Positions 1,515 through 61,410 of a stretch of DNA of 64,000 nt are shown in pieces. The notes under the pieces are model-generated. The model had not been told where the DNA came from. It was given only the letters and a program-made list of their open reading frames with translations, and searched no databases. Made by a program: the position numbers and the translations under genes. The stretch comes from Burkholderiales bacterium (GTDB taxonomy: Bacteria > Pseudomonadota > Gammaproteobacteria > Burkholderiales > Ga0077523). The stretch spans positions 70,257-134,256 of the forward strand of contig JALHMS010000010.1 in assembly GCA_022843925.1 (NCBI GenBank), read 5' to 3'. The number at the start of each line of letters is the position of its first letter. Within the stretch, counting starts at the first letter, position 1.

Positions 1515-3182
1515 ATGAACCCCCTCCCGATGACGCCTGCGGCACCCGACGCCTCGGAGGATCTCCTGCCGCGCCTGGAGGAACTCAACGAGATCGGTAT
1601 CGCCCTCTCGAAGGAGCGCGATCTCGCGCGGCTCCTCGAGACCATCCTGATCGCGGCCAAGAAGATCACGAACGCCGAGGGCGGCACGCTCTATCGCCGT
1701 CATGCCGACGACGAGAACCTCCTCCACTTCGAGATCATCCGGAACGAGGTGCTCGGGATCGCGATGGGCGGCACCACGGGGCGCGAGATCCGTTTCGACC
1801 CGATCCCGCTCACCTTCGACGACGGCAGCGAGAACACGTCGATGGTGGTGGCCTACGCGGTGCTGCACGACCGGACGGTCAACATCGCCGACGCGTACAG
1901 CGAGGAAGGCTTCGACTTCTCCGGCACGAAGCGTTTCGACAGCCGCACCGGCTATCGCTCGAAATCGTTCCTCACCGTGCCGCTGAAGAACCACGAGAAC
2001 GAGATCATCGGTGTTCTGCAGCTCATCAACGCGAAGGATCGCGCGACGGGCGAGATCATCCCGTTCGGCCCGGCCGATCAGCGGCTCGCTGAGTCGCTCG
2101 CGTCCCAGGCGGCGGTCGCCATCACGAACCGGCTGCTCATCCTGCAACTGGAGCACCTCTTCGAGTCTTTCATCAACCTCATCAACGAGGCGATCGACGA
2201 CAAGTCGCCCTACACCGGCGGTCACTGCAAGCGGGTGCCGCAGCTCACGATGCTGCTGGCCGAGGCGGCCCACAGGGCGGAGTCCGGTCCGCTGGCTGCC
2301 TGGCAGATGACCGAGCAGGACCGCTACGAACTGAAGATCGCAGGGCTTCTGCACGACTGCGGCAAGGTGACCACGCCGGTCCACGTGGTCGACAAGGCCA
2401 CGAAACTGCAGACCATCTTCGATCGCATCGAGCTCGTCGAGACGCGGTTCGAAGTCGTGAGACGGGATGCCGAGATCGCCATGCTGCGGGCGAGGCTTGC
2501 CGCGCACGAGGGTGGGCCGGCCATCGACGTGGCGGCGACCGAGAAGACCTACATGGCGCGGCTCGCCAAGATCGAGGAGGACCGCGAATTCGTCCGTCGC
2601 GCCAACATCGGTTCCGAAGCGATGGGGGCGGAAGATCAGGCGCGTGTGAAGGCGATCAGCCTCGAGTACCCGTGGAACGACCCGACGGGCGCCAATGTGC
2701 CGTTCTTCAGCGCCGACGAGGCGGAGAACCTGGCCATCCGCGCGGGCACGCTCACCGCGAAGGAACGTCAGATCATCAACCATCACATCGACGTGACGAT
2801 CAAGATGCTCGAGGCGCTTCCATGGCCGCGGCACCTGCGCAATGTGCCGGAGTACGCGGGCGGTCACCACGAGCGGATGGACGGCAAGGGCTACCCGCGC
2901 GGTCTCAAGCGGGACGACATGTCGGTGCAGGCCCGCATCATGGGCATCGCCGACATCTTCGAGGCACTGACCGCGAAGGACCGGCCCTACAAGAAGGGCA
3001 AGACGCTCACCGAGTCGCTGCACATCCTCGGCAAGTTCAGCCTGAACGGCCACGTGGATCCGGACCTCTTCGACGTGTTCGTCCGGGACCGCGTCTATCT
3101 CGCGTATGCCGAACAGTTTCTCGATCCGGAGCAGATCGACGAAGTGGACGTCAGCAGCATTCCGGGGTATGCCGGAGACTGA
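1515..3182 (+). CDS. GAF-like sensor + HD-GYP domain protein (predicted c-di-GMP phosphodiesterase/receptor)
   Basis: Track ORF 1464..3182. I chose the ATG at 1515 (MNPLPMTP) because 1464 lies inside the upstream gene. HD-GYP signature: [11 protein letters not shown] ... [14 protein letters not shown]. The N-terminal half looks GAF-like, which is a weaker call. Confidence 0.85.
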
Positions 3183-3375
3183 CGGAAAACGTCACGACGA
3201 CCACGCGGGCTTCCTGTGCACGACTTCCTTCCGCCGCACGCCGATCCCCGGCCCTGACATGCGACGGAGACAAAACCCCCGGTGGAACCGGACCAGCCCC
3301 GAAACCCCGGCGCACAAGGGTACTTTCCGACAGGGTCGTTCAATGGGCCGACAGCCCCTGTCAAGATTCGCGTAC

Positions 3376-3391
3376 TGGCACACGCCTTGCC
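3376..3391 (+). promoter_or_regulatory. RpoN (sigma54) -24/-12 promoter for pilA
   Basis: TGGCAC-acgcc-TTGCc matches the consensus TGGCAC-N5-TTGC with correct spacing, about 60 nt upstream of the pilA ATG. Sigma54/PilR control of pilA is established in Pseudomonas and relatives. Confidence 0.7.
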
Positions 3392-3451
3392 TTTTCGGAG
3401 GGTGCACATCGCCCGATTGTGTCCAGTCCAACCGCCTTAGGAGTTAAGTCA

Positions 3452-3910
3452 ATGAAGCGTATTCAACAGGGTTTCACCCTCATCGAGCTGATGATCGTGG
3501 TCGCGATCATCGGCATTCTGGCGGCGGTTGCGCTGCCCGCGTACCAGGACTACACGGTCCGCGCCCGGGTGCAGGAAGCCGTGACGCTGTCCGACCCGGC
3601 CCGCTCGGCAGTGGCCCAGGCCTGCTCCGAAGCCACGCTGGGTGGTGCCACCTCCGCGGGCGGCGTCGTCGACAACACGACGGCCGGTCTGCCGGTACCG
3701 ACGGGGATCACCGGCCAGTACGTGGCTTCCGTGACGATGACCAGCACGGGCACGAGCACGGCCACCGTGACGATCTCCGTCCGCAACATCAACGGTATCG
3801 TGGCCGGTGGCAGCACCGGTGATGTGATCTACACGGCAGCCTGCAACCCTGGTGGCACGAACTGGTCGGTTTCGGGCTCGATCCTGTCCAAGTACTTCCC
3901 GAAGTCCTGA
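3452..3910 (+). CDS. pilA: Type IVa major pilin (prepilin)
   Basis: Only the last 459 nt of track ORF 2672..3910 are pil[35 protein letters not shown] is a class III leader with G-1, F+1 and E+5. Two Cys ([12 protein letters not shown]) fit the C-terminal disulfide loop. An AGGAG RBS lies 8 nt upstream of the ATG. Confidence 0.95.
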
Positions 3911-22637: not shown

Positions 22638-24221
22638 TTGAGAATTCGCATCACTGCCACGGGCGCGCTCGCCTGTACCCTTCTGTTCGCGCCGGCGGCC
22701 CACGCCGCGTCCGACCCCGACACCAACCGCTTCGAGCGTCGCTACGACCTGAACCTGAGTTTCAGACTGCCGCTCGACAAGGTCGCGAACGGCCAGGTCA
22801 TCGTCGACGTGAAGATGATCGCGAAGCTCTGGACGCTGATGGGCGAGCCGGTGGTCTACTGCAGCGCAAGCTGGACGCTGCGCAACGCCAATCTCACGCT
22901 CACGCGACGCGGTGAGTCGAGGGTGTTCCTGCGCGACGAGAGCATGCCGGCGTCGGTGTGGAAGGATGTCGATCTCATCGACGCGAAGTTCGCGATCCCG
23001 CTGGTGCGCAAGCCTTCGGGCAGCTCCCCCGAGAGGGCCTGGCTGCCCTGCGACATAGGGGCGACGAACGCGAACGGGGATCCGCGCGGATCGTTCACGG
23101 TGCCGGGTAGTCCGGACTGGAGTCGCCTGTTGCTCACGCCGGAACGCTTCCAGAACGTGAATCGACGGTGGAACGACGCCGCCAACTACATGACGGCCGC
23201 AGAGGCGAAGGCGTTCCTGAAATCGCCGGACACCTCGATGGAGACCGTCGGGCGCAATCTCGGTGTCTCGAACAGCTTTGTGCTCGAGATGCAGTTCAAC
23301 TTCTGGTCGCTGATCGGCTGGCAGGACGACCAGTACGCCGCGCAGGAAGAGAAGCGCGTGGCCGAGCGGGCTGCGGAACGCCGACGCGTCCGCGACATCA
23401 TCGCGGCGAAGCGTCCGGCGAAGTCGCCGCAGACTCCGAGCGAAGCGACGAAGCCCGGGAGCAACCTGCTCGACCCGTTCGATGCGATGGTGGAGGAGAT
23501 CGAGACCACCGAGGTGACTCGCGACGCCGAGGTGCGCAAGTCCGCCACCGCCCGCGAGTCGTCACAGACGGCGGCGCGGCAGGCGCAGCGGCGCCGCCAG
23601 CTGGCCGCACGCGGCTGTCACGGAAGCGACCCCGCGACGCTCGACGATCTCGGCGCCGCCGCCGAGCGCGCTGAAGCGGGCCACGCGAAGTGCAGCAGCG
23701 GCGCGGGTCTCGTGGCATTCCGCGATAAAGAGGCCCACCTCTACGGCTACAAGCGGCCCGATGGTTCGGTGCACATCGAACCGCGATTCGAGGAAGCCAA
23801 GAACTTCAGCGAAGGGCTGGGGCTGGTGAAGAGCACCGAGTGCGGCAAGTTCGCCTGCTACGTGAACGCGGAGGGCGCGATCGTCCTCCGGACCGAGTAC
23901 GAGCACGCAGAACCGTTCTCCAGCGGCCTCGCGTCAGTGCAGGACTCGAACAGCTACAAATACGGCTACATCGACCGCGAGGGACGTGTCGTGATCCCGC
24001 TTCAGTTCACCAACGCGTGGCCATTCGTGAACGGCGTCGCGTCGGTGGGTACGCTGTTGGAACAAACGCCGGTGGAATCCATCACGGTCGAAAACGTGTG
24101 CTGGGAGTACGGCACGACTGCATATGCCCAAGGCGAGATCTCGCCGACCGGTGCGTGGATCTCCGGTCCGACGGAGAGGCGTGATGAATACAAGCAGCTG
24201 TGCCCGACGAACAACCGATGA
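22638..24221 (+). CDS. Secreted WG-repeat (KWG-type) protein with unknown N-terminal domain
   Basis: Track ORF 22581..24221. The TTG at 22638 lies 7 nt after AGGAG and gives the signal peptide LRIRITATGALACTLLFAPAAHA/AS. The C-terminus has WG-type repeats (YGYKRPDGSVHIEPRFEEAKNFSEGLGLV, YGYIDREGRVVIPLQFTNAWPFVNGVASV). Confidence 0.75.
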   Translation: MRIRITATGALACTLLFAPAAHAASDPDTNRFERRYDLNLSFRLPLDKVANGQVIVDVKMIAKLWTLMGEPVVYCSASWTLRNANLTLTRRGESRVFLRDESMPASVWKDVDLIDAKFAIPLVRKPSGSSPERAWLPCDIGATNANGDPRGSFTVPGSPDWSRLLLTPERFQNVNRRWNDAANYMTAAEAKAFLKSPDTSMETVGRNLGVSNSFVLEMQFNFWSLIGWQDDQYAAQEEKRVAERAAERRRVRDIIAAKRPAKSPQTPSEATKPGSNLLDPFDAMVEEIETTEVTRDAEVRKSATARESSQTAARQAQRRRQLAARGCHGSDPATLDDLGAAAERAEAGHAKCSSGAGLVAFRDKEAHLYGYKRPDGSVHIEPRFEEAKNFSEGLGLVKSTECGKFACYVNAEGAIVLRTEYEHAEPFSSGLASVQDSNSYKYGYIDREGRVVIPLQFTNAWPFVNGVASVGTLLEQTPVESITVENVCWEYGTTAYAQGEISPTGAWISGPTERRDEYKQLCPTNNR

Positions 24222-25177
24222 ACATGACCATGACCCCGCTCAGAACACTCGCGATCGTCGCCATCGCAATCGGCCTCAGCGCCTGCGGCACGACCCAGTC
24301 GCAGTTCCGCGAGACACCCCAGGGCCCGGGCCTGACCTGGCGCGTCGACGAATCGAAGCAGTCGATCCTCGCGGCGCCCTCGGCGTCCCTGGAAGGCGAC
24401 ACGCTGCTGTTCCCCGTCGAGATCCGCCGGGTCGAGCGGGAGTTCGCGTTCGATGGTTTCGTGCGGGAGGCCCTGCACACGAAGAGCCCGGACGCCGTCG
24501 CCGCGGTGACTGGCAGCATCCTGACACTGGGAACGTACTGCCTGATCCGTACGGAGGAATGCTTCGGCGAGTCGACCGGATGGAGCGAGGCCCAGGAGAT
24601 CCGCCGCAACGAGCGGCCGACGGGGAACAGTCGCCCGCGCGTGGATCCGCACACAGAAGCCGTCACCGCGGACGTCCTGCTGCAGGGGAAGGACGCCGAC
24701 GGCACCGTGATGGGGTCCGTTCCGGCCGTCGTGGAGACAACCGACGGCACACTGCGCCTGCCGCTCACGAACCTGTTGCAGCAGTTCCCGCAGCGGCCGC
24801 GACACCTCGACGTGCTGGTCACGCTGCGCGACCCGGCAGCCGAGCCCTGGCATCTCGAGATCGGTCGCGAACAACTCGACCCCCTGGCGCTATCCGCCGA
24901 ACATTGGCTGCCACCCACCGAACGCCAGGCGCTGGCGATCGCGCGGCTCAAGCCGCAACTGCTGGCCGGCGACCATCGCGAGGCGCTGGCGAACTTCGCG
25001 CAGCTCGAAGCGCTGCCGGTCACGCTGCCGGTATCGTTCCACTTCATGTACGGCCGCAGCCTGCTGATGGCCGGCGAACGCAATCGCGGACGGGAGCAGA
25101 TGCAGAAGTATCTGGCCGCGGCGGGCGAGTCCGGGCTGTACGTCGCCGACGCGCGGGCGTTCCTGGGGGCGCCATGA
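24218..25177 (+). CDS. Lipoprotein of unknown function
   Basis: ATG 24218 forms an ATGA overlap with the upstream stop. Lipobox AIGLSAC. No recognisable domain. The C-terminus looks helical-repeat-like. Confidence 0.7.
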   Translation: MNMTMTPLRTLAIVAIAIGLSACGTTQSQFRETPQGPGLTWRVDESKQSILAAPSASLEGDTLLFPVEIRRVEREFAFDGFVREALHTKSPDAVAAVTGSILTLGTYCLIRTEECFGESTGWSEAQEIRRNERPTGNSRPRVDPHTEAVTADVLLQGKDADGTVMGSVPAVVETTDGTLRLPLTNLLQQFPQRPRHLDVLVTLRDPAAEPWHLEIGREQLDPLALSAEHWLPPTERQALAIARLKPQLLAGDHREALANFAQLEALPVTLPVSFHFMYGRSLLMAGERNRGREQMQKYLAAAGESGLYVADARAFLGAP

Positions 25178-25194
25178 TCGAGCGACCGGAGGTC

Positions 25195-26374
25195 CGTCTG
25201 CGTTGATCTCGTCGCAGCCCTTGTAGGAGGGGCCCATGGCCCCGAGAGCGATCGACGCGCGGAAACGCATCGACCGGAACAGACGCTTTCGCGGCCATGG
25301 GCCGCTCCTACAAAATGCGTGGCGGATTCCGACAGCGGGTGATGCACCACAGCCCTTGTAGGAGGGGCCCATGGCCTCGAAAGCGATTGACGCGAGGAAG
25401 CGCTTCGACCGGAACAGACGCTTTCGGGGCCATGGGCCGCTCCTGCAAAATGCGTGGCCGATTCCGGCAGCAGGTGATGCACCACAGCCCCTGTAGGAGG
25501 GGCCCATGGCCCCGAAACCGATCGACGCGAGAAAACGCATCGACCGGAACAGACGCTTTCGCGGCCATGGGCCGCTCCTACAAAATGCGTGGCCGATTCC
25601 GGCAGCAGGTGATGCACCACAGCCCCTGTAGGAGGGGCCCATGGCCCCGAGAGCGATCGACGCGAGGAAACGCTTCGACCGGAACAGACGCTTTCGCGGC
25701 CATGGGCCGCTCCTACAGAAAATAGTGGCGGATTCCGACAGCGGTTGATGCACCGCCCCCCCTGTAGGAGGGGTCCATGGCCCCGAAAGCGATCGACGCG
25801 AGGAAGCGCTTCGACCGGAACAGACGCTTTCGCGGCCATGGGCCGCTCCTGCAAAATGCGTGGCGGATTCCGGCAGCAGGCGATGCACCACAGCCCCTGT
25901 AGGAGGGGCCCATGGCCCCGAAAGCGATCGACGCGAGAAAACGCATCGACCGGAAAAGATGCTTTCGCGGCCATGGGCCGCTCCTACAGAAAATAGTGGC
26001 GGATTCCAACAGCGGTTGATGCACCGCCCCCCCTGTAGGAGGGGCCCATGGCCCCGAAAGCGATCGACGCGAGGAAACGCATCGACCGGAACAGATGCTT
26101 TCGCGGCCATGGGCCGCTCCTACAAAATGCTTGGCCGATTCCGACAGCAGGTGATGCGCCACAGCCCCCGTAGGAGGGGCCCATGGCCCCGAAAGCGATC
26201 GACGCGAGGAAGCGCTTCGACCGGAACAGACGCTTTCGCGGCCATGGGCAGCTCCTGCAAAATGCGTGGCGGATTCCGGCAGCAGGCGATGCACCACAGC
26301 CCCTGTAGGAGGGGCCCATGGCCCCGAAACCGATCGACACGAGGAAGCTCATCGACCGGAACAGACGCTTTCGC
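25195..26374. repeat. Tandem array of 9 x ~135-bp REPIN-like units (GTAGGAG-type REP doublets)
   Basis: Forward REP TGTAGGAGGGGCCCATGGCCCCGAAAGCG starts at 25221, 25356, 25491, 25626, 25762, 25897, 26033, 26168 and 26303. Each is followed by the inverted REP CGCTTTCGCGGCCATGGGCCGCTCCTAC. The last unit is truncated. Confidence 0.95.
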
Positions 26375-26450
26375 ACGCTTGCCAGGTCCCGTCACCCATC
26401 GCAGGCGTACAGTGGAGGCGTTCACGCCAACACCCAGCGCCCAACGACCC

Positions 26451-27494
26451 ATGAAGATTTCCGTACTCGACCAGTCCACCGCCTCGGCGGGACGTGGGCA
26501 GGATGCCGCCATCCGCGAGAGCATCGACCTCGCGCGCCACTGCGACCGCCTGGGCTATCACCGCTACTGGGTGTCGGAGCATCACAACAGCGAGAGCATC
26601 GTCGGGACGGCGCCTGAGGTGTTGATGGCGGCGATCGCAGCAACGACCACGCGCATCCGCGTCGGCAGTGCCGGCGTCATGCTTCCGCACTACGCGGCGC
26701 TGAAGGTGGCCGAGCAGTTCCGGGTGCTCGAAGCCATCGCGCCGGGCCGCATCGACCTCGGACTCGGGCGCGCACCGGGGTCCGACCGCCTCACGGCCCA
26801 CGCGCTGAATCCGTACTCGAACGCCGCCGACGAGTTTCCGCGGCAGGTGCAGGAGCTGCAGGCCTGGGTGGCCGGTGAGCCGCTGCCGGACAACCATCCG
26901 TTCCGGTCGATCCGCGCGCATCCGATGGGGTCGACGGAACCACAGATCTGGATTCTCGGCAGCTCGGACTACGGTGCGCAGCTCGCCGCGCATTTCGGGT
27001 TGCCCTACGCGTACGCGTATTTCTTCAGCGATGGCCGTGGCGTGGAGCAGGCACTCGATCTCTATCGGCGCTACTACCGCGCGAGCGATCGGCATCCGAC
27101 GCCGCAGCCGACCATCTGCGTGTGGGCGCTGGCGGCGGACACCGAGGCGGAGGCGAAGCGGCTAGCGACGACGCGCGAGTACTGGCGTGTCGGCTTCGAA
27201 CAGGGGCTCCGCAATCCGCTGGTGTCGCCCGAGGATGCCATGGCGCATCCGTACTCCGCAGCCGAGATGGCGACGGTCACGGCGATGCGCAGCAAGGCCT
27301 TCGTCGGGACCGGACCGCAGGTGGCGGAGAAGCTGCACGCGCTGGCGCGTCGCCTCGATCTCGACGAGCTGGTGATCAACACCTGGACCCACGACCCCGT
27401 GCCGCGCCACCGTTCGTACGAGTTGCTCGCGGACGCTTTCGATCTGGGCGGCACCGCGCGCTCTGCGGTGCAGCCCGAGACAGCGCCTGCGTAG
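26451..27494 (+). CDS. Luciferase-like (LLM class) flavin-dependent oxidoreductase
   Basis: Start at ATG 26451 (MKISVLDQS...). YHRYWVSEHHN and RIDLGLGRAPGSD are typical LLM motifs. The track ORF 25860..27494 is extended artificially through the repeat array. Confidence 0.85.
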   Translation: MKISVLDQSTASAGRGQDAAIRESIDLARHCDRLGYHRYWVSEHHNSESIVGTAPEVLMAAIAATTTRIRVGSAGVMLPHYAALKVAEQFRVLEAIAPGRIDLGLGRAPGSDRLTAHALNPYSNAADEFPRQVQELQAWVAGEPLPDNHPFRSIRAHPMGSTEPQIWILGSSDYGAQLAAHFGLPYAYAYFFSDGRGVEQALDLYRRYYRASDRHPTPQPTICVWALAADTEAEAKRLATTREYWRVGFEQGLRNPLVSPEDAMAHPYSAAEMATVTAMRSKAFVGTGPQVAEKLHALARRLDLDELVINTWTHDPVPRHRSYELLADAFDLGGTARSAVQPETAPA

Positions 27495-34143: not shown

Positions 34144-34396
34144 TCTTGTAGGAGCGGGCCACGCCCGCGAAAGCGGTCGATGCAAGTTGATGCACCAACC
34201 GGAACCATCGCTTTCGCGGCCGTGGGCCGCTCCTACAAAAAAGCGTGGCCCATGCCGACAGCTGGTGGCGTATCCACCACCCTTGTAGGAGGGGCCCATG
34301 GCCCCTGTAGGAGCGGGCCATGCCCGCGAAAGCGGCAGATGCAAGGAAACGCTTCAACCGAAACCGACGCTTTCGCGGCCATGGGCCGCTCCTACG
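34144..34396. repeat. REP/REPIN cluster (5 REP copies)
   Basis: Forward REPs at about 34146, 34281 (truncated) and 34305. Inverted REPs at about 34209 and 34368. They share the GTAGGAG..hairpin..GAAAGCG core with array 25195..26374. Confidence 0.9.
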
Positions 34397-42737: not shown

Positions 42738-43045
42738 GGCAGGGTGGGAAGCGCGGCCCCCGCGGAGGGGGCCGTGCGGGCCCCTCCCTGACACGCGGCG
42801 GCGCGTGATCGAATCGCCGCCGCAGCGGCGAGGGCGAACGCGGGCGGAGCGGGCGGGGCAGGCCTGCGCCTCCTTCAGTGCAGCAGACTCCCATTTGCAC
42901 GGGCCGATCCGCGGACGTCCGCCGGCGGATTGACCTCCGTCATGTCTTCGGCATGCAGGCGCGCCTACATTGGTCTTGTCACGCCGGGAAACTCCGGCGA
43001 TCCCGCCTCCGCGGGATCCGCGAAGACATCCAATGGAGTCACGCC

Positions 43046-45643
43046 ATGTTTCGTCGCACCGTTCTCACCAGCCTCATCCTGGCCGCTTTCGCCATGCATG
43101 CGCCGAACGCCGCCGCGCTCGGGGCGCTCGACGCTTGCACGTGGAAGGGCAACTTCATCGCCACAGGCGCCATGACGACCGCGCGCGCCGGGCTCGTCGC
43201 GACGGCACTCGTCGACGGATCCGTGCTGGTGACCGGCGGCAGCAGCCGATCGACCACCGTCCGCAGCGCCGAGCACTTCGACCGCACCACCGGAACGTTC
43301 ACCGCCCTGCCCGACATGACGACGGAGCGCTACTTCCACACCGCGACCCGCCTGGATTCGGGCGAAGTGTTGATCGTCGGCGGAAGCGGCGGCGCGGGGG
43401 CCCACGGCGCCACTGCGAGCGCCGAGATCTTCGAGCCGATGCGCAAGGCGTTCCGCGCGACGACGGGCGCCCTCGCCAAGGCACGGGTGTTCCACACCGC
43501 CACCCTCATGTCCGACGGCACGGTGCTGATCGTGGGCGGCGTGGGAACGAATTCGTCGGATGTGGCCGAGGTCGAGTTGTTCGATCCGGCGACGGGGAAG
43601 TTCCGCGTCGTCGCGACGCTGTCGACGCCGCGCTCCAACCACACGGCAGTCCGCGTGAAGGGCGCGTCGGCAACGACGGACGACGTGCTCATCGCGGGCG
43701 GGAAGGGGCCGAACGGCACGACGACCGCCGTGGAGATCCTCACCTACGACGCGTCGCTGAAGACCGCCACTGTGCGCACTGCACCACCGCTGGCGGAGGC
43801 CCGACAGAACCATTCGGCGACGCTACTGCATAGCGGGGAAGTCCTCGTCGCGGGGGGCACCGGCGCCAACTACCAGCCGGTCGCGAGCGTGGAGCGCTGG
43901 ACCGGGCACGCGTTCTTCACCGAGGGGCCACTGAACCATCCGCGCCGGGACCACCACGCGACGCTTCTGCCGACCGGCCAGGTGCTGGTGGCCGGCGGCC
44001 TCGACCTGCATGTCGTGCCGGCGACCGAGCTGTACACACCGGGTGCCGGCTTCCGCGACATCGGGGAGCTCGTCGCACCGCGCTTCTACTCCGCGGCGGT
44101 CGGTCTGCCCACCGGGCAGGTGCTGTTCATCGGCGGCTTCGACGCAACGGAGGTCGCCGTCCTGAAGCACGCCGAGCTGTACGACCCGTTCTGGGCCGGC
44201 GTCGGCCCGATGCAGGAGGGGCGACAGAATCACAGCGCGACGCTGTTGCAGGACGGGCGTGTGCTGCTGGCCGGCGGGGGCGACGGCGGCAGCGGGACGC
44301 GGAACACGGCGGAGCTGTTCGATCCGGTCACGGGAGGGTTCACGTCGGTCGGCATGACCGACGCGCGATCGAAGCACGCGGCCGCGCGACTCGACGGCGG
44401 CGCAGTGCTCCTCGCCGGCGGCCAGAAGACCGGCACGCAGTTCCTCGCGTCGGCAGAGGTCTTCGACCCCGTCACCAACACCTTCGGTGCCACTGCGTCG
44501 CTCTCCAGCCCGCGTCTGGGCCACACGGCAACAGCCCTCGCCGACGGTCGCGTCGTGGTCGCCGGCGGGTTCGGGCCGACCGTCTGGGCGTCCACCGAGA
44601 TCTTCACGTGGCGCGCAACGACTTCGCAGGGCACCTTCCAGTCCGGGCCGGCGATGACGCGGGACCGCCTCGGTCACGCGTCGGTGCTGCTCGACAACGG
44701 GCGCGTGCTCTCGACCGGCGGCTGGAGCAGCGTCGCAGGCGGCATCACGTACGCCATCGAGGAGTTCGACCCGGCCGCGGGCGGCTCGTATTCGGCCTGG
44801 CCCAACCATGCGTGGTTCCTGACCAACCGGCGGGATCACACGATCGCCGCCCTGCCCGGCCAGACGCGCGCGCTCGTGGCCGGTGGCCTCACGTCCGGCC
44901 TCACGCCGACGACGTCGTTCGAGGTCATCCCGCAGGGCGGGGAAGGGCGGATGCTCTCCGCCCGCACGCTCCACGCGATGACGCCGACGGGTACGAACCC
45001 CACGACGTTCTGGGTGATCGGTGGGCTCCCCGCGTTCTCGGGCCCGTCGACGGCGACAGTGGAGAAGCTCGACGCCGCCGATCTCTCGACGACGGCGATG
45101 CCCGAACTGGGCACGGGCCGCGCGCACCACACGGCAACGCTGTTGCAGGACGGGCGCGTGCTCGTGGCCGGCGGTCATCGGAGCATGGACGGCGCGACGG
45201 CGACCGCCGAGATCTCGAAATCGACGATCTGCGCCGCGCCACCGCCCTTCGGCTTCCGGCCCCGCGGCAAGGTCACGTTCGAGAAGACGTATCTCCACAT
45301 CGACCCGAAGCGCTTCTCGATCCGTGCGCTCGTCGGCAACGGCGGCCGGCGAAACAACCCGGCGTTCGACATGCGCTTCGACCTCGTCGGCCGCGATGGC
45401 GACGAGCGCCGCATCGTGCTGGGCAGGATGCCTGTCCCGAAGCTCGGCCCGGCCGAGCGGACGCGCCTCACGGCGAATCTCGCGCTGCCGGCGCGGCTGC
45501 CGGAAGGCACGTTCGGCATCCGGGCCTGCGTGGTGCCGCAGGCGCTGCTCGCGGCGGAGTGCTTCGACATCCCGGGCAACGTGGTACGCGGCACGAAGCT
45601 GCGTCGGGACCACTTCCCGCATCTGCAGGCACCGGGGAAGTAG
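43046..45643 (+). CDS. Secreted Kelch-repeat protein (14 blades) with C-terminal beta-sandwich-like domain
   Basis: Start at ATG 43046 (MFRRTVLTSLILAAFAMHAPNAAA, a signal peptide). I counted 14 repeats of the pattern .R..H[ST]AT.L.DG.VL[VI]AGG by eye. The last ~150 aa resemble a CARDB-type domain, which is a tentative call. Confidence 0.8.
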   Translation: MFRRTVLTSLILAAFAMHAPNAAALGALDACTWKGNFIATGAMTTARAGLVATALVDGSVLVTGGSSRSTTVRSAEHFDRTTGTFTALPDMTTERYFHTATRLDSGEVLIVGGSGGAGAHGATASAEIFEPMRKAFRATTGALAKARVFHTATLMSDGTVLIVGGVGTNSSDVAEVELFDPATGKFRVVATLSTPRSNHTAVRVKGASATTDDVLIAGGKGPNGTTTAVEILTYDASLKTATVRTAPPLAEARQNHSATLLHSGEVLVAGGTGANYQPVASVERWTGHAFFTEGPLNHPRRDHHATLLPTGQVLVAGGLDLHVVPATELYTPGAGFRDIGELVAPRFYSAAVGLPTGQVLFIGGFDATEVAVLKHAELYDPFWAGVGPMQEGRQNHSATLLQDGRVLLAGGGDGGSGTRNTAELFDPVTGGFTSVGMTDARSKHAAARLDGGAVLLAGGQKTGTQFLASAEVFDPVTNTFGATASLSSPRLGHTATALADGRVVVAGGFGPTVWASTEIFTWRATTSQGTFQSGPAMTRDRLGHASVLLDNGRVLSTGGWSSVAGGITYAIEEFDPAAGGSYSAWPNHAWFLTNRRDHTIAALPGQTRALVAGGLTSGLTPTTSFEVIPQGGEGRMLSARTLHAMTPTGTNPTTFWVIGGLPAFSGPSTATVEKLDAADLSTTAMPELGTGRAHHTATLLQDGRVLVAGGHRSMDGATATAEISKSTICAAPPPFGFRPRGKVTFEKTYLHIDPKRFSIRALVGNGGRRNNPAFDMRFDLVGRDGDERRIVLGRMPVPKLGPAERTRLTANLALPARLPEGTFGIRACVVPQALLAAECFDIPGNVVRGTKLRRDHFPHLQAPGK

Positions 45644-45713
45644 GCGGGAGGAGGCGCGGCGGTCGCTCGGCCGGCGCTTCTCGCGGAGGGCGGAACCGGG
45701 TCCAATGGAGGGC

Positions 45714-46845: not shown

Positions 46846-47212
46846 ACCGCTTTCGGGGCCATGGGCCCCTCCTACAGGGCTGGTCGGTGCGCCACCTACC
46901 TCGGAAATGGGCGAGCTGTTGTAGGAGCGGGCCATGCCCGCGAAAGCGATGGTTCCGGTCAATCCGCTTCCGCAGCATCCACCGCTTTCGGGGCCATGGG
47001 CCTCTCCTACAAGGTAGGGGCGCCATCCGCCTCGGGACGGGCCTCGCCTCTGTAGGAGCGGGCCATGCCCGCGAAAGCGATGGTTCCGGTCAATCCGCTT
47101 CCGCAGCATCCACCGCTTTCGGGGCCATGGGCCCCTCCTACAAGGTAGGGGCGCCATCCGCCTCGGGACGGGCCTCGCCCTTGTAGGAGCGGGCCATGCC
47201 CGCGAAAGCGCG
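46846..47212. repeat. REP/REPIN cluster with 131-bp period (6 REP copies)
   Basis: Forward REP TGTAGGAGCGGGCCATGCCCGCGAAAGCG at about 46919, 47050 and 47181. Inverted REP CCGCTTTCGGGGCCATGGGCCCCTCCTACA at about 46849, 46983 and 47114. Confidence 0.9.
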
Positions 47213-60698: not shown

Positions 60699-61410
60699 GG
60701 CCGCGGGGGGCCCTCCTACAGGGGTGCTGCCCTTCCTTCATGGGCATTCTTCGTAGCGGCCCATGGCCGCGAAAGCGCTGGGTCCGGCTGAAGCGCTTTT
60801 GCAGCATCCACCGCTTTCGGGGGCATGGCCCCCTCCTACAAGGGCATTCCGGATGGTGAGTTTGTAGGAGCGGCCCATGGCCGCGATAGCGTTGGTTCCG
60901 GTCGATACGCTTTCGCAGCATCCACCGCTTTCGGGGGCATGGCCCCCTCCTACAAGGGCATTCCGGATGGTGAGTTTGTAGGAGCGGCCCATGGCCGCGA
61001 TAGCGATCGTTCCGGGTGAAGCGCTTCTGCAGCATCCACCGCTTTCGGGGGCATGGCCCCCTCCTACAAGAGCATTCCGGGTGGTGGATTTGTAGGAGCG
61101 GCCCATGGCCGCGAAAGCGCTCGGGCCGGCTGAAGCGCTTCTGCAGCATCCACCGCTTTCGGGGGCATGGCCCCCTCCTACAAGGGCATTCCGGATGGTG
61201 AGTTTGTAGGAGCGGCCCATGGCCGCGAAAGCGATCGTTCCGGGTGAAGCGCCTCTGCAGCATCCACCGCTTTCGGGGGCATGGCCCCCTCCTACAGGGG
61301 CATTCCGGGTGGTGAGTTTGTAGGAGCGGCCCATGGCCGCGAAAGCGATCGTTCCAGGTGAAGCGCTTCTGCAGCATCCACCGCTTTCGGGGGCATGGGC
61401 CCCTCCTACC
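60699..61410. repeat. Tandem array of 6 x 114-bp REPIN-like units
   Basis: Forward REP TTTGTAGGAGCGGCCCATGGCCGCGAAAGCG starts at about 60861, 60975, 61089, 61203 and 61317, plus a degenerate copy at about 60751. Each is paired with the inverted REP CCGCTTTCGGGGGCATGGCCCCCTCCTACA. Confidence 0.95.

Follow-up and report, generated by a model that had tools for sequence, protein, structure and literature searches.

Within a single locus, the tandem copies of a BIME show good conservation, and their number differs from strain to strain (PMC3333891). REPs arranged in large, regular clusters of alternating orientation are known from Xanthomonas and Stenotrophomonas (PMC2817692), and tandem REPIN clusters including their flanks from Pseudomonas fluorescens SBW25 (PMC3116915). 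The 1.2-kb repeat analysed here, located in a window of 64,000 nucleotides (the whole stretch of DNA under study), is real but ordinary, a REP-doublet array that is one of about 80 in its genome. Very probably, it is a non-coding, BIME-2-like tandem array of GTAG-type REP doublets, which occupies an old site and was expanded in place.

Comparison with the described systems revealed similarities to each of them. With E. coli BIME-2 (tandem Y/Z2 modules with S and s/l/r linkers) the array has in common the regular REP spacing and alternating orientation, the two REP stem subtypes alternating per module (GC/GC and CC/GG here, Y/Z2 there), inter-REP motifs recognisable across loci, nearly identical copies at a single locus, a copy number varying between genomes, and a cognate RAYT gene flanked by the same elements (PMC3333891, PMC2817692). 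In contrast to BIME-2, the array REP shows no similarity to Y/Z2 past the GTAG head, the module is longer (135 bp), and arrays are far more dominant, about 80 of them accounting for 80% of the REPs. The BIMEs of Xanthomonas campestris and Stenotrophomonas maltophilia also belong to high-GC Pseudomonadota, consist of GTAG REPs mostly in large, regular, alternating clusters, show compensatory stem variants, and flank or embed the rayt gene (PMC2817692). While inter-REP segments of different BIMEs were reported to be without homology in Stenotrophomonas (PMC2817692), spacer and linker are conserved between loci here, in fixed relative orientation. In SBW25, REPIN clusters adjoin each RAYT, and the REP core found here is very similar to the GTAGGAGCG...CGCGAA type (Bertels & Rainey 2011, PMC3116915). 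However, the 16 clusters of SBW25 comprise at most 4 REPINs (about 700 bp), with plain doublets accounting for 61% of its REPs, whereas the genome studied here contains about 80 arrays reaching 11-12 REPINs and only about 10% plain doublets. In the GTAG-1 super-family, for example in Thauera sp. MZ1T, extra bases follow the GTAG tag and the untagged end carries a short conserved tail, GAAAGCG; its families are largely clustered, tandemly reiterated with flanking DNA, and located preferentially at gene 3' ends and in convergent gaps (Di Nocera et al. 2013, PMC3733652). These features resemble those of the array's REP family, which may be assigned to GTAG-1 by this resemblance. Judged from its sequence, the array would belong to the REP/REPIN-RAYT systems, with GTAG palindromes, fixed-gap pairing, a flanked RAYT, co-occurrence of the two and an extragenic position, and probably to the BIME-2 type, with regular alternating modules, two subtypes, and conserved copies in variable number.

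When the tandem repeat was re-tested by TRF, it was recovered at 25215-26374 with period 135, 8.6 copies, 90% matches and a score of 1882. Periods 271 and 406 were also called, both with slightly better matches than 135, and period 406 had the best score. Unit alignment placed 8.6 head-to-tail units of 135/136 bp at window positions 25214-26374, so that the array proper begins at about 25214 and not at 25195 as given in the first-pass annotation. Forward REP cores (GTAGGAGGGG) begin at 25223, 25358, 25493, 25628, 25764, 25899, 26035, 26170 and 26305, in exact agreement with the unit spacing of 135, 135, 135, 136, 135, 136, 135 and 135 nt noted before. The four-part unit and the REP sequences quoted for it were likewise found in the array by unit alignment and inverted repeats. 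In each unit, a 33-nt spacer separates a GTAG-type REP from an inverted REP, and a 46-nt linker follows. The stem of the forward REP is GGGGCC/GGCCCC, that of the inverted REP another subtype, GCGGCC/GGCCGC; the spacer has a small palindrome at its centre, and the linker a small hairpin of its own (GGTGG-n5-CCACC). The REP map showed 17 REPs in strictly alternating orientation (+-+-...+), with forward arms of the GC/GC type and inverted arms of the CC/GG type throughout. The array and its surroundings are made up as follows, G014 being the nearest sister species.

24200 to 25177, plus strand: upstream gene, hypothetical (ORF list; strong codon periodicity; G014 ortholog 93% identical)
25214 to 26374, plus strand: array, 8.6 tandem units, 17 REPs (TRF, unit alignment, inverted repeats, REP map)
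25214 to 25348, plus strand: unit 1, type A, edge unit; TT precedes GTAGG, likewise in unit 1 of the G014 array
25349 to 25483, plus strand: unit 2, type B (GAAGCGCTTC spacer centre, CTCCTGC); 95-96% identical to units 5 and 8
25484 to 25618, plus strand: unit 3, type A'; GAAACCG tail in common with unit 9
25619 to 25754, plus strand: unit 4, 136 nt, linker variant C (CAGAAAATAGTGGC...GCACCGCCCCCCC), from unit alignment
25755 to 25889, plus strand: unit 5, type B; 98% identical to unit 8, with a 79-nt exact repeat at offset 406
25890 to 26025, plus strand: unit 6, 136 nt, linker variant C; 96% identical to unit 4
26026 to 26160, plus strand: unit 7, type A, from unit alignment
26161 to 26295, plus strand: unit 8, type B, from unit alignment
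26296 to 26374, plus strand: unit 9, cut short after the forward REP, the spacer and the initial 11 nt of the inverted REP
26375 to 26450, plus strand: unique right junction upstream of the LLM gene; its last 58 nt or so (from about 26404) alignable to G014
26451 to 27494, plus strand: MsnO8-family luciferase-like (LLM) oxidoreductase (PF00296, 3.4e-41; TIGR03558, 399.7 bits)

The units are 84-98% identical pairwise and form a higher-order repeat, mean unit identity being 90.0% at offset 1, 92.8% at offset 3 and 94.5% at offset 6. A separate linker variant (..CAGAAAATAGTGGC..GGTTGATGCACCGCCCC) had been described for units 4 and 6 and was confirmed. The description of the last unit as lacking its right arm holds in that unit 9 ends at 26374, 11 nt into the inverted REP (..GACGCTTTCGC up to this position, ACGCTTGCC beyond it), but not as a feature of the array, the end being an indel breakpoint. 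The missing arm coincides with the absence of about 1.06 kb present in G014, and this difference of about 1.06 kb from the sister species would have arisen by an indel of which one breakpoint lies within the last inverted REP. The 1055-nt segment following the G014 array had no match anywhere in the source assembly. On the left side, the 46 nt next to the array are 63% linker-like compared to 52 +/- 5% for shuffles (p about 0.03), which weakly suggests that 25177-25222 could be a degenerate linker copy; nhmmer gave no match for such a copy in this flank.

As noted in the first-pass annotation, the array is located in a gap between two genes of the same strand, where it occupies 1161 of the 1273 nt between the stop at 25177 and the LLM ATG at 26451. 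The stop codon of the upstream gene lies 45 nt ahead of the first REP. For this gene, searches of Pfam and NCBIfam gave no family match; the LLM gene is 97% identical to its G014 ortholog, and its nearest named homologs, in Pseudomonadota and betaproteobacterial MAGs, are at 78-87%. Long spurious ORFs indeed run across the array on both strands, for example at 24082-25974 (minus strand, 630 aa), 24890-26110 (minus strand, 406 aa) and 25860-27494 (plus strand, 544 aa). The codon-position GC spread is 0.02 in the array versus 0.35-0.38 in the flanking genes, indicating an extragenic sequence without codon periodicity, and a reading as protein-coding repeat was dropped. For annotation, this means that about 1.2 kb yielding ORFs of up to 630 aa is a non-coding repeat and that the true start of the LLM oxidoreductase is 26451. 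Rfam searches with relaxed thresholds assigned no family to the array and returned only sub-threshold chance matches to miRNA hairpin models. Terminator-like sites, that is, a T-run after a GC hairpin, were absent from 24900-26700, and a promoter and terminator consensus scan around the array detected no canonical signal. The expectation that GTAG-type REP doublets fold as REPIN hairpins was borne out (z about -9), the predicted folds as ssDNA having -35.4 and -38.8 kcal/mol (z -8.9 and -9.3). Judged from these folds, the array as DNA or RNA could fold into consecutive hairpins of very high stability behind the upstream gene. By analogy to E. coli REP/BIME, an effect on 3'-end stability, on read-through into the LLM gene or on supercoiling is plausible.

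Genome-wide, the REP core, which had been proposed for counting, is represented by 912 copies at up to 5 mismatches, compared to 6 for a reversed control pattern. The consensus is TGTAGGAG[C/G]GG[C/G]CCATG[C/G]CC[C/G]CGAAAGCG. The 912 REPs fall into 190 clusters, and 734 of them (80%) are in clusters of at least four REPs. Among inverted (+ -) doublets, the inner gap is 33 or 34 nt in 349 of 395 cases, and the outer gap between REPs has its mode at 46 nt. Two arms of the same subtype were found in only 13 of 356 doublets (9 of 137 loci), 25% being expected (p = 3e-8). There are 79 GTAG-type tandem arrays with a total of 43 kb, among which the array at 25214-26374 ranks third by TRF copy number and fifth by REP count. 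Gene context was assigned by GC periodicity alone, and many flanks were ambiguous; by this measure, arrays of at least four REPs are located in 36 convergent, 14 co-directional and 4 divergent gene gaps. No association of unit polarity was detected with local GC skew (Fisher p = 0.39) or with flanking gene direction. Three more clusters of the same REP family are present in the window.

34148 to 34395, no strand assigned: second cluster, 4 REPs; 2 at the G014 ortholog site
46848 to 47210, minus strand: third array, 6 REPs, 131-bp period, opposite polarity
60750 to 61409, minus strand: fourth array, 12 REPs, 114-bp period, opposite polarity; 4 REPs at the G014 site

The unit had been interpreted as one REPIN plus its flank. 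The linker, however, is a family-wide module at dozens of loci and not a local flank. Its consensus was found at 167 places in the genome, its orientation is coupled to that of the spacer across loci, and spacers of different loci are 72% identical versus 53% for shuffles. With stringent BLAST, the array's own spacer was detected only here and its linker at just one other locus, C42. The reading as locus-specific flank prompted by this search was dropped in view of the family-level alignment and HMM, by which spacer and linker of the array are diverged copies of family-wide modules. The sequence of the whole module of about 135 bp is kept across dozens of loci. It may represent a composite unit of fixed orientation (REP subtype 1, spacer, REP subtype 2, linker) that goes beyond a REPIN with copied flank, but this remains a doubtful proposal. 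A CRISPR array was also considered and rejected, as the inter-REP segments recur as well (identities of 0.91 and 0.87 within arrays) and are kept between loci.

The search for a RAYT gene, which had also been suggested, was successful outside the window on another contig (C27:59714-60196; NCBIfam NF047646 REP_Tyr_transpos, 121.6 bits at a cut-off of 80). Its product contains the HUH motif (PDHAHW) and the Tyr region (ARYIIENP), and GTAG REPs flank the gene on both sides (-538 to -37 and +685 to +931 relative to the ORF). Among 31 related genomes, the REP pattern was found 685 times in G000 and 431 times in G014, apart from which there was a single match in G029; the RAYT was present in G000 and G014 only, at 82% identity. 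On sequence grounds, the family is tied to this single, putatively cognate RAYT (Y1/HUH transposase) gene. From established RAYT biology, it presumably seeded REP doublets at many intergenic sites.

At the orthologous site of G014, the left junction is the same and three units are present, so that the copy-number comparison proposed before could be made between species, though not between strains (8.6 units versus 3). LNFM01000064.1, the sole match to the left junction in a metagenome scan, is the same record as G014 (100% over 13 kb) and thus not independent. The units of the window are 83-93% identical to those of G014, and linker variants are species-specific. All window units bear the ACAGACGC spacer end of G014 unit 1, while G014 units 2 and 3 keep the family consensus CCATCGC. 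The four REP sites of the window contain 17, 4, 6 and 12 REPs compared to 6, 2, 5 and 4 in G014, the third site in G014 consisting of 4 REPs and a solitary REP about 180 nt upstream. Since all four sites are occupied in G014 as well, no recent insertion is visible. The site of the array was thus already occupied before the split from the sister species and would then have grown in place to 8.6 units in this lineage, all from the first-unit type. We infer an increase from about three to nearly nine copies since the split, a direction (as opposed to contraction in G014) read from the unit genealogy only. The earlier preference for local tandem amplification over nine insertions is upheld by the three G014 units and by the first-unit type of all window units. 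Genome-wide identities point the same way, being 0.91 for spacers and 0.87 for linkers within arrays and 0.72 and 0.57 between loci. The suggestion of a recombination hotspot receives some support from this comparison.

Unequal homologous recombination between misaligned units would be the most likely route of growth, leading to the three-unit higher-order repeat, with RAYT-catalysed module addition as a live alternative. That the RAYT itself built the array is possible but judged rather unlikely; it would have added modules in situ, either through strand transfer after cutting at inverted-REP plus linker sites or by copying an excised module as a rolling circle, as modelled by Nunvar 2010 and Ton-Hoang 2012. 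A cognate RAYT is present and is itself located between arrays, 80% of the REPs are in arrays, and the linker is conserved in fixed orientation, as expected of the bearer of a recognition/cleavage site. In addition, E. coli TnpAREP recombines inverted-REP plus linker sites in vitro and assembles tandem BIME copies (PMC3333891), and Nunvar et al. argued that BIME length polymorphism is above what recombination or slippage would yield (PMC2817692). However, neighbouring units are least alike (90.0%) and units three or six apart most alike (92.8% and 94.5%), the opposite of what single-module addition or rolling-circle copying of one module predicts, although copying of a three-unit block would agree with this pattern. 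The sequence carries no mark of RAYT cleavage sites. Even less can be said for nine independent REPIN insertions side by side, each into a pre-existing REP. REPs are known insertion targets, and disordered clusters arise by insertion beside existing REPINs (Bertels & Rainey, PMC3116915), but the strict 135/136-nt period, the array-specific spacer and linker variants common to all units, the three-unit higher-order repeat and the genome-wide identity, far higher within than between arrays, effectively refute this reading and make it extremely improbable. The source genome and G014 constitute a clean natural pair for REP/BIME array growth, because both have REPs at the same sites, in copy numbers that differ two- to three-fold, a founder-unit genealogy can be followed, the RAYT is found in these two only, and arrays are the dominant state of the REPs. 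The pair could make an old question testable, namely whether BIMEs are built by host recombination or by RAYT.

Very unlikely is also an assembly artefact, by which the array or its length would reflect a collapsed or expanded repeat. Repeats do trouble the source assembly, since among its 64 contigs 33 of 128 ends (26%) are within 300 nt of a REP, and the exact copy number comes from one short-read-style assembly. Yet the units can be told apart individually and no exact repeat within the array exceeds 79 nt, so that k-mers or reads above this length give one path; the array is about 95 kb and 71 kb away from the ends of its contig, the independent assembly of the other species has the same element at the same junction, and more than 150 similar arrays exist in the genome. 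Apart from its origin, the array could be kept by selection rather than being tolerated as selfish DNA, for example if it shields the 3' end of the upstream mRNA, acts ahead of the LLM gene as an insulator or a Rho-dependent attenuator, or serves as a topological element bound by gyrase. The prevalence of convergent gaps (36 versus 14 and 4), paralleled by the same REP bias reported in PMC3733652, would fit such a role, as would the very stable predicted RNA and DNA hairpins and the retention of all four window sites in both species; furthermore, gyrase binding is described for E. coli BIME-2, and mRNA stabilisation and assistance to Rho termination for REPs (cited in PMC2817692 and PMC3333891). 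The 3'-end bias is, however, equally explained by purifying selection against promoter insertions, copy number differs about three-fold at the orthologous site, no terminator-like T-run is found at the array, and 16 of 18 congeners are devoid of such REPs, so that no particular array is essential. Maintenance by selection is therefore considered improbable.

A second, unrelated (GTGG) REP family is present in the same genome, with its own RAYT and a module of about 130 bp that also occurs mostly in arrays. As an improbable reading of the convergence of the two families, RAYTs in this lineage may amplify entire modules in place, the linker being a second cleavage/joining site, or the host may select arrays of hairpin modules of about 130 bp as topological or nucleoid-binding elements. 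Together, the two families make up about 156 arrays and about 96 kb, or 1.7% of the genome, the GTGG figures being derived from TRF only and the GTGG core being nearly palindromic.

The tandem array lies at 25214-26374, where it takes up 1161 of the 1273 nt between two genes of the same orientation and thus fills the intergenic gap much as the first-pass annotation had described it. That annotation placed the start at 25195; the array itself is present, but it begins near 25214, and the 46 nt to its left are only marginally linker-like (63% versus 52 +/- 5% for shuffles).

Features at the array locus
up to 25177, + strand, upstream gene, hypothetical (stop at 25177)
25214-26374, tandem array
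from 26451, + strand, downstream gene, MsnO8-family luciferase-like oxidoreductase (ATG at 26451)

The forward REP cores begin at 25223, 25358, 25493, 25628, 25764, 25899, 26035, 26170 and 26305, reproducing the unit spacing of 135, 135, 135, 136, 135, 136, 135 and 135 nt read from the sequence earlier. Tandem Repeats Finder (TRF) delimited 25215-26374 with a period of 135, 8.6 copies and 90% matches; periods of 271 and 406 were also reported, with match percentages slightly above that of period 135. The four-part unit was recovered as well, consisting of a forward REP (TGTAGGAGGGGCCCATGGCCCCGAAAGCG), a spacer of 33 nt, an inverted REP (CGCTTTCGCGGCCATGGGCCGCTCCTACA) and a linker of 46 nt, and every REP pair of the array was found by an inverted-repeat search. 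Units 4 and 6, which are the 136-nt units, indeed carry a distinct linker of their own (96% identical to each other), and unit 9 is incomplete as claimed, with only the first 11 nt of its inverted REP present. Both strands carry ORFs across the array, the longest of 630 aa. They are spurious, as stated before, because the array lacks codon-position GC periodicity (spread of 0.02 versus 0.35-0.38 in the flanking genes).

The REP core was expected to be abundant in the genome, and 912 copies were counted when up to five mismatches were allowed, versus six for a reversed control pattern. These form 190 clusters, with 734 REPs (80%) in clusters of at least four. Of 395 doublets, 349 have an inner gap of 33 or 34 nt, and the outer gap is looser (mode 46, range 24-68 nt). 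In the whole assembly (5.57 Mb, 67.7% GC, 64 contigs), of which the window covers C10:70257-134256, TRF revealed 174 regions of 100-165-bp period, amounting to 104 kb.

Tandem regions in the whole genome (TRF, period 100-165 bp)
GTAG-REP regions: 79, 43 kb
second-REP (CGTGGGTCGAGCnnnGCTCGAC) regions: 77, 53 kb, ~130-bp period
regions of other kinds: 18

Among the GTAG arrays, the one at 25214-26374 ranks third in TRF copy number and fifth in REP count; it is typical of this genome, not exceptional. The second REP family has a GTGG head and no relation to the GTAG family. Its arrays, with a period of 129-131 bp and up to 11.3 copies, share the order REP, spacer, inverted REP and linker, so that two families converge on modules of ~130-135 bp. 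In a third array type (133-138-bp period, up to 9.1 copies), the unit combines one GTAG REP with a module of ~100 nt containing the palindrome ACAAGGGGnnnnCCCCTTGT and GGCCCGCGGCGG.

Examples of the other array types
second REP family (TRF): C37:3296-4759; C13:97312-98700; C14:91476-92834
third array type: C30:28715-29922; C43:15692-16520; C6:94590-95375; C1:274436-275091; about 8 more

In stringent BLAST searches, spacer and linker of the 25214-26374 array matched almost only within that array. Between loci, oriented spacers are 72% identical (53 +/- 6% for shuffles) and linkers 57% (49% for shuffles). With a linker HMM (consensus AAAAGCCTGGCCCATTCCCACGGCGGGTGGCGCATCCACCGCCCCT), 167 places were detected, of which 122 have a REP on either side and 38 are at the edges of arrays. 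When arrays were oriented by the spacer alone, linker orientation was concordant at 69 loci out of the 86 that were informative (p = 1e-8). Because linker orientation follows that of the spacer, the whole module of ~135 bp is a fixed-orientation composite. The proposal that the unit is a REPIN plus its local flank does not hold, since cross-locus identity and the HMM show the linker to be conserved at the family level. The four arrays of the window represent one module in two orientations. At C42:14293-14545, a short array of 1.9 units has a linker 93% identical to that of the 25214-26374 array, far nearer than at any other locus, which suggests that a module was recently copied or transferred between the two loci.

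The arms of a doublet differ in their stems, GGGGCC/GGCCCC in the forward and GCGGCC/GGCCGC in the inverted REP. Four stem subtypes exist genome-wide, each self-complementary through compensatory changes, and arms of the same subtype occur in only 13 of 356 doublets (9 of 137 loci), versus 25% under random pairing (p = 3e-8). The Y/Z alternation in BIMEs of E. coli is of the same kind. Both at 25223-26332 and genome-wide, the hairpin of each single REP is perfect, and the long hairpin between arms is always mismatched. Arms may be unlike because perfect long palindromes are avoided or because the REP-associated tyrosine transposase (RAYT) requires it. As single-stranded DNA, the doublet is predicted to form a long hairpin (-35.4 kcal/mol for the top and -38.8 for the bottom strand, z about -9); predicted pairing across the linker is nearly as strong (-37.4 kcal/mol).

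Three places in the genome match Pfam Y1_Tnp. The search for a RAYT gene was successful: the ORF at C27:59714-60196 scores 121.6 bits on the NCBIfam equivalog 'REP-associated tyrosine transposase' (NF047646, cut-off 80 bits) and is flanked by GTAG REPs on both sides (-538 to -37 and +685 to +931). A second RAYT, on C33, reaches 117.2 bits and has second-family REPs on both sides. The third protein (C3:223259-224293, 344 aa), with 71.7 bits, falls under the cut-off. Its N terminus holds a Y1_Tnp domain (Pfam 53.7 bits) and its C terminus an HTH-like tail. GTAG REPs are found upstream only, at 540-740 nt, and the gene is probably of another kind, IS200-like or TIRYT-type. In a comparison of 31 related genomes, 18 of them congeners, the GTAG REP was detected only in the source genome, with 685 exact-pattern hits, and in its nearest sister species G014, with 431, apart from a single hit in a third genome. 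The C27-type RAYT is present in exactly the same two genomes (82% identity), and its named relatives, ~60% identical, come from Pseudoxanthomonas and Pseudomonas and are annotated RayT or REP-associated tyrosine transposase. In all sequence-level respects, REPs and gene thus have the appearance of a REP/REPIN-RAYT system.

G014 and the window are syntenic, with a nucleotide identity of 90-95%. At the orthologous site (G014:C62:498000-504000) the left junction is the same, and only three units are present, the last inverted REP being complete. Between the array and the luciferase-like oxidoreductase gene lies a segment of 1055 nt (oriented 2707-3761 of this site) which is absent at window 26374/26375. 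The segment includes an ORF of 120 aa whose product has a signal peptide (MNQVTSKIFTTTFAAVLAIGASGVALAQ...), and no match to the segment or to the protein exists anywhere in the source assembly. The lack of a right arm in unit 9 therefore marks one end of an indel. Units are 84-98% identical within the window array, 92-95% within that of G014 and 83-93% between the genomes, and every window linker contains window-specific variants. The spacer end ACAGACGC is found in all window units and in G014 only in unit 1, units 2 and 3 retaining the family consensus CCATCGC. Most simply, these sequences would mean that seeding of the site preceded the divergence of the two species and that the window array later expanded from a founder of the first-unit type. 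All four REP sites of the window are also occupied in G014, always with more REPs in the window.

REPs in the window versus G014
25214-26374: 17 versus 6
34148-34395: 4 versus 2
46848-47210: 6 versus 5
60750-61409: 12 versus 4

The two genomes also differ by a large indel, window 42756-45675 (about 2.9 kb) versus G014 oriented 20630-43691 (about 23 kb). Solitary REPs are located near the right edge of the extra ~23 kb in G014, and the window array with a 131-bp period lies ~1.2 kb beyond the indel.

Repeats strain the assembly, as 33 of 128 contig ends (26%) have a REP of one family or the other within 300 nt. Breaks occur preferentially in REP arrays, the true length of some arrays likely exceeds the assembled one, and the 8.6 copies are an as-assembled figure. 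That the array is an assembly artefact is nevertheless argued against by its distinguishable units, by a longest exact repeat of only 79 nt (at offset 406), by its distance from contig ends and by the independent assembly of G014, in which the element recurs at this junction. Mean identity is 90.0% at an offset of one unit, 92.8% at three and 94.5% at six. Adjacent units are the least similar; units 2, 5 and 8 are of one type, 4 and 6 of another. Host unequal recombination is favoured for the recent growth steps, because unequal exchange between misaligned multi-unit blocks would produce such a three-unit higher-order repeat. The less likely alternative is amplification catalysed by the RAYT, as proposed for BIMEs (PMC2817692) and partly reproduced in vitro with E. 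coli TnpAREP (PMC3333891). A three-unit higher-order repeat would not result from addition of one module at a time or from a single module copied by rolling circle, though copying of a three-unit block would fit.

Judged by its structure, the array is a BIME-2-like array of REPINs in every feature compared: alternation of REPs is regular, arm subtypes differ, units are homogeneous within the locus, copy number differs between genomes, and the RAYT gene is flanked by the same elements. Structures of the same kind are known from E. coli (PMC3333891), Xanthomonas and Stenotrophomonas (PMC2817692), P. fluorescens SBW25 (PMC3116915) and GTAG-1 families, for example in Thauera (PMC3733652). Mildly unusual at the level of this genome are the dominance of arrays as the REP state, the conserved linker in fixed orientation and the convergence of two families on ~130-135-bp modules.

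A consensus scan of the locus detected no T-run terminator and no sigma-70 consensus, the array matched no Rfam family, and unit polarity did not correlate with GC skew or gene direction. RNA of the first 3.5 units has a predicted fold with z = -13.8. By analogy to REPs and BIMEs of E. coli, mRNA 3'-end protection, Rho-dependent attenuation and gyrase binding are plausible roles. Arrays of at least four REPs are located between convergent genes in 36 cases, between co-directional genes in 14, the minority class to which the 25214-26374 array belongs, and between divergent genes in 4. A 3'-end bias is known for REPs (PMC3733652), and the preference for convergent gaps fits either a 3'-end function or plain exclusion from promoter regions.
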